From Candidatus Latescibacterota bacterium (lineage in GTDB: Bacteria > Latescibacterota > UBA2968), in contig OZ220741.1 of assembly GCA_965116885.1 (NCBI GenBank), positions 3,808,001 to 3,872,000 of the forward strand: DNA of 64,000 nt. Reading direction: 5' to 3'. The translations under genes were made by a program, and so were the position numbers. Below the pieces are notes generated by a model that did not search any database, was not told the DNA's origin, and saw only the letters and a list, made by a program, of their open reading frames with translations. Numbering within the stretch: the first letter of the stretch is position 1; the number at the start of each line of letters is the position of its first letter. Below, one piece after another: positions 39,406 through 48,516 of the stretch.

Positions 39406-39449
39406 AAGAAAAAGCGCCTGTGCAAAATCGCACAAGCGCTTTCTTTTTT
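39406..39449 (-). terminator. Probable original terminator of tRNA-Gln, displaced by island insertion
   Basis: AAGAAAAAGCGCCTGTGC-AAAATC-GCACAAGCGCTTTCTTTT hairpin with A/T tracts, directly abutting the left att core. Confidence 0.6.
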
Positions 39450-39911
39450 GGTTGCCCGATAGATGCATTCACTGAACGTTTCTGTGTGTGGGATAACTTC
39501 CCCATCCACCACTTCCGCAGGAACAAGAAGCCCATAATCGCAATCGGACAGAAAAAGAAAAAACAATTGGTCACTCAAAAATTGCACCATCCCAATTATC
39601 TCAAAAGGGCCATGTATTATCACGAGCTTCTTGAAAAGGGCCACGTTCAATCTCAGAGGGCACTTGCGAAACATGTGGGAATTTCGCAACCCAAAATTCA
39701 CCTGATTCTACAGATGCTCAAACTGGATGAAGAAATTAAGGATTTTATCTTGAAGATAGATGACACAGACCCAGGGCTACGTTTCCTGACTGCCTATCGG
39801 TTGCAGCCGTTATTCCAGGTTAAGAGCAAGGAGAGACAAAGAAGGAAATTTTGGAAAATGATTGGGGAGCAATATCCAGGCCAAAGGGCCTGTGAGCAGG
39901 TTGGGCTATGA
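39450..39911 (+). pseudogene. Orphan HTH segment resembling the C-terminal HTH of large serine recombinases; begins in frame at the att core
   Basis: RAMYYHELLEKGHVQSQRALAKHVGISQPKIHLILQMLKLDEEIKDFIL; the ORF-track ATG (39402) lies outside the island at the terminator. Confidence 0.6.
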
Positions 39912-39945
39912 ATTGATGGCTGAATAAAATAGATTGATCTTTTTC

Positions 39946-39990
39946 AAATGGGCGATATATTGTCTTTATTGGATGATATATCGCCCATTT
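39946..39990. repeat. Perfect 15-bp inverted repeat AAATGGGCGATATAT-N15-ATATATCGCCCATTT
   Basis: Read directly. Confidence 0.85.
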
Positions 39991-40088
39991 TATTTCTACA
40001 AAAATAGATGAGAGAAATGACATGTTTCATTGACAAGAGTTGCGGCCACAACTGCGGACTACCTCGTGCTGTATGTGAATCGCGATAT

Positions 40089-40264
40089 GGATGGTACAGG
40101 ATGATTGGGATGAACCTTCTACATTATCCACGAAAGCGGAGTAACTCCAAAGTTTCATCTTAACTCGCTTATCGCATACCTTGTGCCGATAGCTTACGCA
40201 AAATTGCACCAAACACAGGCTTGAACCTAGGCCCTAAATACCCCACCAAAACGGGGTAACTCCA
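40089..40264. repeat. Two partial spacer elements ending in right-type ends (40125-40149, 40240-40264)
   Basis: TATCCACGAAAGCGGAGTAACTCCA and CCACCAAAACGGGGTAACTCCA; interiors resemble 41757-41806 and 48007-48100. Confidence 0.8.
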
Positions 40265-40482
40265 GCAGCACCAGTGCTCCGAGCACAATGTGGAGATCTT
40301 TACTGGGGCGCCCAAAGTCTTTGCTGAAATGGGGTGCCAGTTCCCCAACAGGTAGCTCCGAAAGCAGATACTCTCGGAAGACGCCAGCCCAGGAATGATC
40401 AAGGAGTTGCTTGCGTTTGGCCCCCAGGCTGTATCCAGAAATCCGGTGGGGACGCCGAATCGCGGTCTCGTAAGGTAAGCAT
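40265..40482 (-). pseudogene. Frameshifted N-terminal transposase fragment (IS1182/IS5-like)
   Basis: MLTLRDRDS..PDFW / LGAKRKQLLDHSWAGVFREYLLSELPVGELAPHFSKDFGRPSKDLHIVLGALVL; cut exactly at the repeat end at 40264. Confidence 0.7.
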
Positions 40483-40675
40483 AAACGAAAGATAGCTCAC
40501 CTTACCCTTCGTGACAATCTCTGACTTTTTGCCGTCCCGTCAAATGTCGTGGATGATCCAGACGCATCAACTCATAAAATCATTACGGTTCTAGCTCATT
40601 GGACTTGACCATGATTTAAAATCTACAGAATTTATAGTTGAACAAAATGAATTTACACTCTAAAGGAGGTATAAC

Positions 40676-46006: not shown

Positions 46007-46084
46007 TAACAATGGTCTTTTACAATCAATACGGCGGACAATTTGTGTAAGCCGTTAATGAAAAATTTAGGCAAAATGGAGTTA

Positions 46085-46146
46085 TGGAGGTATCCCGTTT
46101 TGGTGGATCATATCATAAATCACCCATCACTTATGAAAAACTGATG
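46085..46146 (+). repeat. Half spacer element (left end only)
   Basis: TGGAGGTATCCCGTTTTGGTGGATCA...CCATCACTTATGAAAAACTGATG, homologous to 41700-41761. Confidence 0.85.
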
Positions 46147-46181
46147 TTAGTTTTTCGTCTATGGAGAGGAGAGATAAGAGT

Positions 46182-47945
46182 ATGCCTAAATTGATTACTG
46201 ATAGCCAAGATGAGCAAACACTTGAAGAGTTATTTAGGGATGCAGATCAAATTCATATCCCTATCTTCCAAAGATCTTATATCTGGAAGCAAAAGCAATT
46301 AGATGAATTACTGGGAGATATTCGATTAATTAGATCTGAAGTGGAGGAATCTCAATTTCTTGGTGCAATTGTAGCTTATGAGAGGCCACGCGACACCCAA
46401 ATTGTGGGCAGATTGAGAGCATTGGCTGTTGTTGATGGACAGCAACGGCTTCTTACACTTTATATTTTTGTTATGTGCTTAGTTGAATGTGTTGCAGGTA
46501 TCGATAAAGAGGAGGGGCTAGAGATAGTTCGCGAATTTCTCCTCCTTCCGACTCGGCGAGGGTTAGATATAAATACGCGAGTGATTCCTGCATTTTCAGA
46601 TAGAAGTCAATTCAGAGTACTTTGGGATCGCCTTAACAGTCCAGACGTCCTTCAAGGTCATTTCGCCCCCCCCCCAAACCCTCCACCTCCAAGCGGTGAG
46701 GCTGCTGGCGCACTCGTTAAACAGTATAATCGAATACTCAGATTTTTACGTAGCTCATTGCCAGAGGAAAAAAATAAAAGAATAGAATTTCTTCGCGAGA
46801 TCCTTGATATAATTACACGCCGATTGACCTTTGTTCATTTGAAACTAAACGATGCCTCTTCAGCGACCAAAATTTTTGAGAGGTTAAATTTCCGAGGTGT
46901 TAGGGTTGGGATAGTAGACCTTGTGAGAAATGAGATATTTTCTGGGACCGCAGATGATCCCACTGAAGCCCAGAGAATTTTTGATCATGTATGGCGGCCT
47001 TTCGAGACAGAATTTGAGGGAAGATCAGAGGCGTTTTTCTTTCCATATTGCCTTGTTCAAAACAGCAATATTAAAAAGTCAGAATTGTTTTCACAACTCC
47101 GAGAAACGTGGAAATCGCTAAGTCCTGAAGAGATGGTGGAACATATGAAGCCATTTCAAGGGCCCTTTATGAGCATAGACAGCACTGGTTATTACTCTGG
47201 GTGTTCCGAAATTTCGATGCGCTTAGACCGCCTTGTCAGAATGCGAAGGCCCTCATCTGTTTATCCTTATGTAATGTCCATGCTACACGCAAGAGATAAT
47301 GAAGAGATCAATGATGATCAATGTATTGATATGCTTGATGCACTTGAAACCTTTTTAGTAAGAAGGGCAATTGTTGGATTTGAACCAACTGGTCTGCATG
47401 CTCTATTCAAAGGACTCTGGGTACAACTCCCCGAACATAATTCGACAGGGTTCGTATCTATTGTTACCGAAAAACCTACGATTCAGTGGCCAAGTGATAA
47501 CGATTTGATCGAGGCAATTGAAAACCGCCCATTAGCAAGAACGCATATTTGCAATTATCTTCTTGTTGAATACGATAAAGGCCTAAAAGGTGATGACCCC
47601 ATTACTACTCCAACGATTGAGCATATATTGCCTGTGTCGTATGATACTAATAGTGAATGGTCTGATTTATTTTCTAGAGATCAACATAAAAAATTGAAAG
47701 ATACTTGGGCAAATTTAATTCCGTTATCTTCGCCCATGAACTCCTCGCTACAGGCAGATCCATATTCACAGAAACGTCCGAGATATGGAAACGAATCAAT
47801 GTTTATCACTCCGCGAGATATAGCTGACAGGTGGGAAGATTGGACGCCATATAGCATTGAGGAAAGAGCACAAATCCTTACCGCCTGGGCAATCGCACGC
47901 TGGCCACATACTCTACCTAATTCAGCAGACAACGTCGAATCTTAG
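46182..47945 (+). CDS. DUF262 + DUF1524 (GmrSD/SspE-like) nuclease
   Basis: IPIFQRSYIW, VVDGQQRL, IFERLNFRG, TIEHILP...ANL...N HNH motif. Confidence 0.88.
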   Translation: MPKLITDSQDEQTLEELFRDADQIHIPIFQRSYIWKQKQLDELLGDIRLIRSEVEESQFLGAIVAYERPRDTQIVGRLRALAVVDGQQRLLTLYIFVMCLVECVAGIDKEEGLEIVREFLLLPTRRGLDINTRVIPAFSDRSQFRVLWDRLNSPDVLQGHFAPPPNPPPPSGEAAGALVKQYNRILRFLRSSLPEEKNKRIEFLREILDIITRRLTFVHLKLNDASSATKIFERLNFRGVRVGIVDLVRNEIFSGTADDPTEAQRIFDHVWRPFETEFEGRSEAFFFPYCLVQNSNIKKSELFSQLRETWKSLSPEEMVEHMKPFQGPFMSIDSTGYYSGCSEISMRLDRLVRMRRPSSVYPYVMSMLHARDNEEINDDQCIDMLDALETFLVRRAIVGFEPTGLHALFKGLWVQLPEHNSTGFVSIVTEKPTIQWPSDNDLIEAIENRPLARTHICNYLLVEYDKGLKGDDPITTPTIEHILPVSYDTNSEWSDLFSRDQHKKLKDTWANLIPLSSPMNSSLQADPYSQKRPRYGNESMFITPRDIADRWEDWTPYSIEERAQILTAWAIARWPHTLPNSADNVES

Positions 47946-47948
47946 AAA

Positions 47949-48100
47949 TGGACTTGCCCCGTTTTGGTGGATAATTTATATAATCCTCATCGCAGACATT
48001 CTTCCATTGCCTACTATGCACCGATGGCCTGCGAAAAGCTGCATCAATCACAGGGTTGAAACACAAGCCCTACACTCTCCACCGAAGCGGGGTAACTCCA
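47949..48100. repeat. 152-bp spacer/MITE-like element with inverted ends
   Basis: TGGACTTGCCCCGTTTTGGTGGATA ... TCTCCACCGAAGCGGGGTAACTCCA; begins after a 3-bp gap from the DUF262 stop. Confidence 0.9.
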
Positions 48101-48516
48101 TCGCTGGACGCAAGGTTGGTATCAAAACCATCGGTCAGAAAATTATCGACCTGGAAGACCAAAAAGAACAAATAGAACAGGAGATGATGGATAATGAATC
48201 AATTCTCGCGGAGCTAAAGCAAAAGGCCGTAAGTGTTGCTCAGATGGCGCAAAAACTTACGACCTTTGAGGAATTATTTGATGAAGCCACACCAGAGGAA
48301 CGGAAAGACCTGTTAAGGCTACATATCAACCACCTGATCTATACCCCTGATGCTATTCAACTGGCCTTGTTTGATTCTGCCAATGAAACGGACAGAATCA
48401 AAGTTCAGCGAGAAGATGTAGTTGGTTGCCCCTCAGGGATTCGAACCCCGATACCTGGAACCAAAATCCAGTGTCTTGCCATTAGACGAAGGGGCAATAC
48501 TGTGTCGCAGGGCTAA
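48101..48516 (+). pseudogene. C-terminal coiled-coil remnant of a large serine recombinase, reading through att into antisense tRNA-Gln
   Basis: KIIDLEDQKEQIEQE...LTTFEELFDEATPEERKDLLRLHINHLIYTPDAIQL; N-terminal catalytic part missing, cut at repeat end 48100. Confidence 0.72.
48423..48496 (-). tRNA. tRNA-Gln(TTG)
   Basis: Reverse complement TGCCCCTTCGTCTAATGGCAAGACA-CTGGA TTTTGGT TCCAG-...GGTTCGAATCC..AGGGGCAACCA. Confidence 0.96.

Follow-up and report, generated by a model that had tools for sequence, protein, structure and literature searches.

A family of large serine recombinases in Latescibacterota that probably carries its attachment site within the recombinase gene

We analysed a 64,000-nucleotide stretch of DNA from a Candidatus Latescibacterota bacterium (assembly GCA_965116885.1, contig OZ220741.1, positions 3,808,001 to 3,872,000 of the forward strand), hereafter the window, and in particular an island at a tRNA-Gln(UUG) gene (39448-48431; 8,974 bp core to core). 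At its right end the island carries the remnant of a large serine recombinase (LSR) gene, and at its left end an open reading frame (ORF) encoding a helix-turn-helix (HTH) segment. We consider it highly probable that this LSR family has its attachment site, attP, inside the recombinase ORF, that integration splits the ORF and detaches a ParB/Noc-type domain, and that the window holds a decayed member of the family. In the unintegrated or tandem state, one ORF of ~660 codons would encode the recombinase and the HTH domain together, and crossover of the core with a tRNA gene would split it. The integrated recombinase would retain all known domains, its new C-terminus being a short stretch translated from the antisense strand of the tRNA gene, and the 150-codon HTH segment, which has no conserved start codon, would remain at the opposite end of the element. 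Judged by its sequence, the island is a member of a family of Latescibacterota LSR elements that insert at tRNA 3′ ends and carry defence genes.

Two copies of the 10-bp core sequence TTGGTTGCCC, at 39448-39457 and 48422-48431, flank the island. The right copy coincides with the 3′ end of tRNA-Gln, whose CCA is encoded. GC content is 0.52-0.54 outside the island and 0.38-0.46 within ~39.4-48.5 kb. A preliminary description of this DNA, made from the sequence alone, had reported that the repeat is read in the same frame at both ends, and the coordinates and translations confirm this: both copies are translated as GGT TGC CCN, in the frame of the HTH ORF on the left and of the LSR remnant on the right. 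The left ORF (39402-39911) reads ...FFF GCP IDAFTERF... and has its stop codon at 39909-39911. The right ORF (47857-48516) reads ...KVQREDVV GCP SGIRTPIPGTKIQ... and terminates 30 residues past VV; this tail, correctly described earlier as ~30 aa read from the tRNA, derives from the core, the antisense strand of tRNA-Gln and 20 further bases. The hairpin said to abut the left core is likewise present, with 16 pairs on the tRNA-Gln strand. The features that define the two ends are as follows.

39276-39352, plus strand: tRNA-Pro(UGG), in the host flank left of the island (ARAGORN).
39409-39444, minus strand: terminator-like hairpin with a 16-pair stem, the presumed pre-integration terminator of tRNA-Gln (B arm of attL).
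39448-39457, plus strand: attL copy of the 10-bp core, which mimics the 3′ end of tRNA-Gln; here the homology to the 15 other HTH segments sets in.
39449-39477, plus strand: predicted P′ arm of the split attP, ending in CTGAAC (39472-39477), from the site geometry.
39450-39911, plus strand: putative orphaned recombinase C-terminal segment, 153 codons and stop, with a ParB/Noc-type DNA-binding domain (Pfam; Protein Data Bank (PDB) profile; dN/dS 0.15-0.20).
39946-39990, plus strand: 20-pair terminator-like hairpin after the HTH ORF.
47949-48100, plus strand: repeat resembling a miniature inverted-repeat transposable element (MITE), with terminal inverted repeats (families D1 and D3); its right end is the start of the recombinase homology.
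48100-48516, plus strand: LSR gene remnant, the last ~108 codons and the 30-residue tail (tblastn, translation).
48403-48422, plus strand: predicted P arm of the split attP, starting with GTTCAG (48403-48408), from the site geometry.
48422-48431, plus strand: attR copy of the 10-bp core.
48423-48496, minus strand: tRNA-Gln(UUG), the integration target (B′ arm), with T-arm TCGAAC at 48441-48446 (ARAGORN).

To compare the HTH segment with its relatives, genomes were scanned with P0034, a fused recombinase-HTH protein discussed below. The scan returned 22 loci, 21 of them in Latescibacterota metagenome-assembled genomes (MAGs) and one in a Poribacteria MAG. Sixteen HTH segments were compared, namely that of the window and 15 from 14 of the 22 loci. 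Their homology starts in every case exactly at a core that resembles a tRNA 3′ end (TGGTTGCCC, TGGTAGCCC, AGTAGCCC or TGGCTCCCC). Upstream of the core, eight of the 16 have host flank with hairpins, and the other eight have remnants of a recombinase C-terminus, the arrangement of a junction between tandem elements.

The arms on either side of the core have a constant geometry. Counted from the T of TGG, the motif CTGAA[CT] ends at +28 in all 16 left ends, and GTTCAG (ATTCAG in L020) starts at −20 in seven of the eight right ends that retain a P arm. The joined arms give GTTCAG-N37-CTGAA[CT], a 49-bp pseudo-palindrome that is centred within the core and translated as ...VQ-x5-G-[CS]-P-x4-TE.... 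The whole site is contiguous in L001, L002 and L004, and is in frame in all three. L016 taken with L004 is in frame as well; no other element combines a full-length LSR with a probable left end. In the window, the site is split into 48403-48431 and 39448-39477. On the target side, the tRNA T-arm sequence T[CT]GAAC ends at +23 in eight of eight TGG-type tRNAs, which places it 5 bp further inwards than the attP motif. A study of serine integrases describes a pseudo-palindromic attP with 25-bp half-sites and an attB in which the zinc-ribbon motif lies 5 bp nearer the centre (PMC3783163), and the shift of the T-arm motif matches this published relation. Since the outer motif of attP corresponds to a near-universal T-arm sequence shifted by 5 bp, the geometry fits a family that moves among Gln, Asn and Met tRNAs by changes of the core only.

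The recombinase relatives show the same boundary. A search for longer relatives of the window remnant yielded 35 proteins, up to 92% identical to the window fragment; nine of the 35 were inspected in full. LSRs of 519-553 aa account for 29 of them, a length consistent with an integrated form that keeps all LSR domains, and 22 full-length proteins of these 29 were aligned. Pfam matches in the relatives are to Resolvase (P0022, E 3e-36; P0187, E 8.7e-33), Recombinase (PF07508) and the zinc ribbon (PF13408). The 22 aligned proteins are similar through ...VQRxxxxG[CS] and then diverge into five classes of tail that are read from antisense tRNAs. One class is the tRNA-Gln tail of the window, GCPSGIRTPIPGTKIQCLAIRRRGNTV, which ends P0003 and P0005; intact relatives at tRNA-Gln, which the preliminary description had envisaged, thus exist. 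The other tails are GCPPGIRTPILRS..., GSGGRTRTYDP..., GSGRGTRTPDPW... and GSGGGI, and in the loci that were fetched such LSR ends adjoin tRNA-Gln(CUG), tRNA-Asn and tRNA-Met genes on the opposite strand.

The preliminary description had proposed that circularization would join the recombinase and HTH segments into one protein, and single proteins of this kind were found. A search for longer relatives of P0034 returned P0187 (658 aa), in which Resolvase (residues 6-157), Recombinase (181-277) and Zn_ribbon_recom (294-352) domains are followed by HTH_ParB (567-627). P0189, encoded on a different contig, is identical to P0187 at 657 of 658 residues and belongs to the same cluster. The junction in P0187 reads VQSVETSGSPTVKSTEP, with a spacing equal to that of the window family. 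Partial fused forms, in which a recombinase C-terminus lies upstream of the HTH, are P0034 and, among the 150 proteins listed as representatives of the HTH segment, P0081, P0076, P0147, P0149, P0159 and, weakly, P0148; where the contigs of the listed ones were looked up, they measured 0.7-2 kb. The P-arm motif is present in two further listed proteins, P0046 and P0056. A tblastn search with P0034 gave no match in plasmid and phage collections. The earlier statement that some LSRs carry a similar C-terminal HTH was borne out here by one protein cluster only, and by no paper.

To place the att-encoded stretch within the protein, we examined a structure model of P0187 built on a 56-row alignment (mean predicted local distance difference test score (pLDDT) 65; predicted template modelling score (pTM) 0.31). 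Long helices span residues 362-459, with pLDDT up to 95, and a C-terminal domain spans residues 561-658, with pLDDT 89-98. Residues 483-538, which hold the att-encoded stretch, have pLDDT below 50. According to this model, the att site probably lies in a linker between the coiled-coil/zinc-ribbon part and the ParB/Noc-type domain. As part of a linker, it would tolerate core changes that match different tRNAs.

The HTH ORF of the window matches Pfam HTH_ParB (PF17762) above the cut-off (E 1.2e-6; 29 bits versus 22.6), in agreement with the HTH previously read at the end of the left segment. A profile of this ORF and its homologues matched Noc in the PDB (7ng0_A, E 6.7e-10) and, further, 4umk_A, 6s6h_A and 6t1f_A (E 1e-8 to 4e-8); the matches span chain residues from ~98 on only. 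The segment is thus like ParB and Noc in having the HTH and the helices that follow it. Unlike these proteins, it has no N-terminal nucleotide-binding domain: no Pfam match to that domain of ParB was obtained in the window ORF, P0034, P0081 or P0187.

The HTH ORFs are open over 140-167 codons in 16 of 16 cases. The first ATG, GTG or TTG past the core is at codon 5 (four loci), 13 (four), 40 (five), 76 (two) or 85 (one). No start codon is conserved, yet the segment evolves as coding sequence, which speaks against its being always an independent gene with its own start. Calculated by the Nei-Gojobori method over 120 pairs, which are not independent of one another, dN/dS was 0.50 for codons 4-12, 0.15 for codons 13-45 and 0.20 for codons 46-135. 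Codons 13-39 are therefore constrained at the protein level in loci where no start codon separates them from the core, which fits translation from the recombinase ORF.

The position of the junction, which the preliminary description had also placed at the core, is supported by an occupied/empty pair, the orthologous tRNA-Asn loci L001 and L014. Here L001 8966-10219 corresponds to L014 8966-10219 (97.7% identity) and L001 13170-20476 to L014 10213-17504 (92.5%). The insert in L001, of 2,957 bp, lies between two copies of the 7-bp core TGGCTCC. It starts with the HTH ORF, ends with a degenerate P arm and contains no recombinase; it was therefore presumably moved in trans. The insert lies in the attR of a resident truncated element, so that the fused ORF P0034 represents a junction of tandem elements. 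For the window itself, the flank at 36001-39398 is 89-94% identical to L008 and L009, which marks its source as a relative of the organisms that carry these loci. Alignment of the left flank with these two loci gave no empty site: the likeness stops past the tRNA-Pro terminator, and the sequences diverge.

A number of observations weigh against an attP inside the recombinase ORF. Full-length fused proteins form a single cluster, which was one of 29 matches in the search with P0034; none of the 150 listed HTH-segment representatives is longer than 364 aa, and a search for longer relatives of P0081 gave none. The putative att site of P0187 and P0189 was read from the proteins only, and the overall quality of the P0187 model is moderate. 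P0034, a fused ORF on a complete chromosome, joins a resident truncated LSR to an incoming LSR-less element, and is no excised circle; no circular form was seen. The B arms, comprising the terminator flank and the other attB half, were searched by eye for a shifted GTTC-like motif and have no clear or consistent one. A GTG at codon 5 or 13, in eight of 16 loci, could serve as a start. Codons 4-12 are weakly conserved, and the conservation that they have could be a DNA-level constraint on the P′ arm. Finally, all 16 HTH ORFs are intact while most of the adjoining LSR genes are deleted, which would fit a stand-alone HTH gene as well.

A rival view is that the HTH ORF is an independent accessory gene, such as a regulator or an excision factor, which lies beside attP by chance, that the open frame across the site serves no purpose, and that the long protein is incidental read-through. 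In its favour, most database homologues of the segment are short (100-200 aa), the ORF is kept even where the recombinase is deleted, and half of the loci have the early GTG. We nevertheless judge this explanation unlikely. In the half of the loci that lack the early GTG, the first start comes at codon 40 at least, yet the low dN/dS extends upstream to codon 13; the frame and the spacing VQ-x5-G[SC]P-x4-TE are kept across lineages that are 32-45% identical; and short database proteins are to be expected from gene callers working on integrated copies. The intactness of the 16 ORFs was considered as proof of independent function and rejected. The recombinase remnant in the window is free of internal stops and 89-92% identical to intact relatives, which indicates that island decay proceeds mainly by deletion, and an intact ORF of 150 codons is then weak evidence for independence.

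A different objection is that fused ORFs occur only at junctions of tandem elements, with no role for a circle from which the long recombinase is expressed. P0034 of L001 does lie at such a junction, L002 has two HTH segments with 4.1 kb between them, and recombinase remnants precede half of the left ends. However, a tandem junction and an excised circle share the same P-core-P′ sequence and are not mutually exclusive. Moreover, serine recombinase elements integrate from a circular or unintegrated attP, so that such a form must exist for the insertion in L001 relative to L014, and P0187 and P0189 are complete and undecayed. We therefore hold this objection to be very unlikely to apply. Barely credible, finally, is the notion that the 10-bp repeat is a chance match and that the region contains no integrated element. 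The 10-mer is expected 0.18 times per window and was found three times, a number reached in none of 100 shuffles. The third copy, at 59069-59078, has neither a tRNA nor HTH or recombinase homology nor a shift in composition around it, and we regard it as chance. Because this unrelated copy exists, the repeat is weak evidence by itself, and its position carries the weight: it coincides with the GC step, the tRNA 3′ end, the point where homology begins in all 16 segments and the centre of the 49-bp palindrome. The insertion seen in the L001/L014 pair also contradicts a chance match.

If attP does lie in the recombinase ORF, the long form would presumably be made only before integration, and the loss of the HTH domain on integration may change the behaviour of the enzyme. 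An element whose long form is restricted in this way would sense its own state through the C-terminus of its enzyme. A more specific proposal, possible but in our view doubtful, is that of a state-sensing serine integrase. In such an enzyme, the HTH domain, joined only in the unintegrated state, would be needed for integration or would steer the reaction towards it, and the short form, by itself or together with the orphaned HTH protein, would be inert or prone to excision. Directionality would then be laid down in the topology of the gene, with no separate directionality factor of the usual kind, and recognition of the T-arm would allow retargeting to other tRNAs by a few bases of the core.

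The family resembles the large serine recombinases of the A118, phiC31 and Bxb1 type in that its relatives have Resolvase, Recombinase, zinc-ribbon and coiled-coil parts. The resemblance extends to an attP that is a pseudo-palindrome of ~50 bp, to a short identical core and to an attB motif 5 bp nearer the centre (PMC3783163). Unlike those enzymes, the present family appears to have attP within its ORF and an extra ParB/Noc-type domain that is removed by integration, and its targets are tRNA 3′ ends with the T-arm as the outer motif. In the literature searched, which covered few subscription journals, we found no serine recombinase with attP in its own ORF. So far as we found, this layout has been described only for an unrelated type of integrase in archaea: the SSV-type ('suicidal', type I) integrases of archaeal viruses and plasmids are tyrosine recombinases, 'so far restricted to archaea', that have a translated attP in the integrase ORF, a tRNA target and a gene that is split (PMC7253208). 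The enzyme considered here is a bacterial serine recombinase that would lose no more than an accessory C-terminal domain, whereas the SSV split leaves both halves of the gene inactive.

The consequences of altering the C-terminus of a recombination or regulatory protein are illustrated by two further systems. In a report on engineered integrases, attaching a recombination directionality factor (RDF) to the C-terminus of a serine integrase alters the pair of sites that is recombined (PMC5737554). Unlike such artificial integrase-RDF fusions, the fusion considered here would be natural and would be reversible through recombination itself. In mycobacteriophage immunity of the BPs type, integration reportedly alters the C-terminus of the repressor, and hence its behaviour, and the integrase is said to be a tyrosine recombinase. 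This integration-dependent immunity of BPs and its relatives relies on an attP within the repressor gene (PMC4557955). Where the BPs-type system splits a repressor gene, the gene split here would be that of the serine recombinase itself.

The window copy has lost the catalytic N-terminus of its recombinase, as the preliminary description had stated. In a tblastn search of the whole window, P0005 (546 aa) matched by residues 408-546 only, at 48097-48513, and the Resolvase-type catalytic domain with its serine nucleophile is accordingly absent from the window. The first ~407 LSR codons are lost; the cut is at the MITE-like repeat, and recombinase homology resumes at 48100. The remnant keeps the last coiled-coil part and the C-terminal strands only; it is 92% identical to P0001 and 89% identical to P0003 and P0005. 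The right ORF (47857-48516) gave no Pfam match. Both att arms are intact, and the element is unable to move by itself because the first ~407 recombinase codons are lacking. Read-through from the host flank might reach the orphaned HTH ORF, which is on the same strand as tRNA-Pro and downstream of it.

MITE-like repeats, with ends of the TGGAGTTACCCCG... type, are strewn across the island (40109-40264, 41700-41954, 42710-42843, 46085-46146 and 47949-48100), and are multi-copy in L001, L003, L004, L007, L008, L011, L012, L014, L015, L017, L021 and L022. A 35-residue peptide encoded in the repeat (47952-48056) matched no Pfam family; by its appearance it might be akin to a transposase end. Directly after one MITE end, a 27-nt segment (42844-42870) is a copy, at 93% identity, of the 3′ part of the HTH ORF (39831-39857).

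The island also carries cargo genes between its ends, as follows.

42998-43735, plus strand: NYN-domain protein (Pfam NYN, E 2e-5).
43748-46006, plus strand: P-loop nucleoside triphosphatase (NTPase)-like protein with pentapeptide repeats (weak Pfam and NCBIfam matches below the cut-offs; DNA 93% identical in L008).
46161-47945, plus strand: GmrSD-type restriction endonuclease (Pfam GmrSD_N, E 2.7e-26; GmrSD_C, E 1.3e-17).

By sequence, this cargo (42998-47945) looks like defence genes. One of the weak NCBIfam matches of the NTPase-like protein, below the cut-off, is to the Hailong effector HalA. The cargo DNA at 42864-45850 is common to L008, at 93% identity, and the island may combine two decayed elements. 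To the right of tRNA-Gln, minus-strand ORFs at 48661-50340 and 50411-52144 are, by eye, what we take to be glutaminyl- and prolyl-tRNA synthetase-like genes.

Several further observations concern the related loci. In the recombinase-less elements of L003 (~9950-10000 and 17670-17721) and L006 (~9950-10003 and 12000-12071), each end has a terminator hairpin of the AAAAGCCCGTCGATCACC... type ahead of the core. Hairpins of this type are also present in L002 (at the 5907 end), at the left end of L004 and at the right end of L010, and they may be the right termini of non-autonomous elements in tandem arrays. P-arm relics of ~33-45 nt (...GTTCAGCGAGAAGATATT...) lie between the terminator hairpin and the core although the recombinase gene is lost, in L004 (~9983-10024), L010 (~17120-17167) and L020 (~12560-12602). 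In L004, a compact ORF starts at an ATG 13 codons ahead of the core and runs on into the HTH segment. The element made up of L016 (1842-7105) and L004 (10844-19922), the sole one with a full-length recombinase, would be ~22 kb long if L004 is its left end; its cargo comprises a DNA methylase-HNH fusion, an AbiC-like protein, a PIN-domain protein and RadC. In L001, a 129-aa ORF (9612-10001) adjoins the truncated recombinase remnant; by eye, it looks like a Doc/Fic-type toxin of a toxin-antitoxin pair.

Serine integrases are leading tools of genome engineering, and the control of their directionality is an active question. The long form, the short form and the att sites of the present family are all defined in sequence, so that the idea of a state-dependent enzyme is directly testable in E. 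coli or in vitro. In addition, the family offers a set of naturally occurring, closely related integrases for different tRNAs, with attP and attB halves that can be read off, and is as such useful for the study of how target specificity changes. The copy in the window is itself a dead remnant that carries putative defence genes. If the arrangement is as we propose, the family would be a bacterial serine-recombinase counterpart of the gene-partitioning integrases of archaea, and a C-terminal domain attached and detached by the enzyme's own reaction would be a new way of coupling activity to the state of integration.

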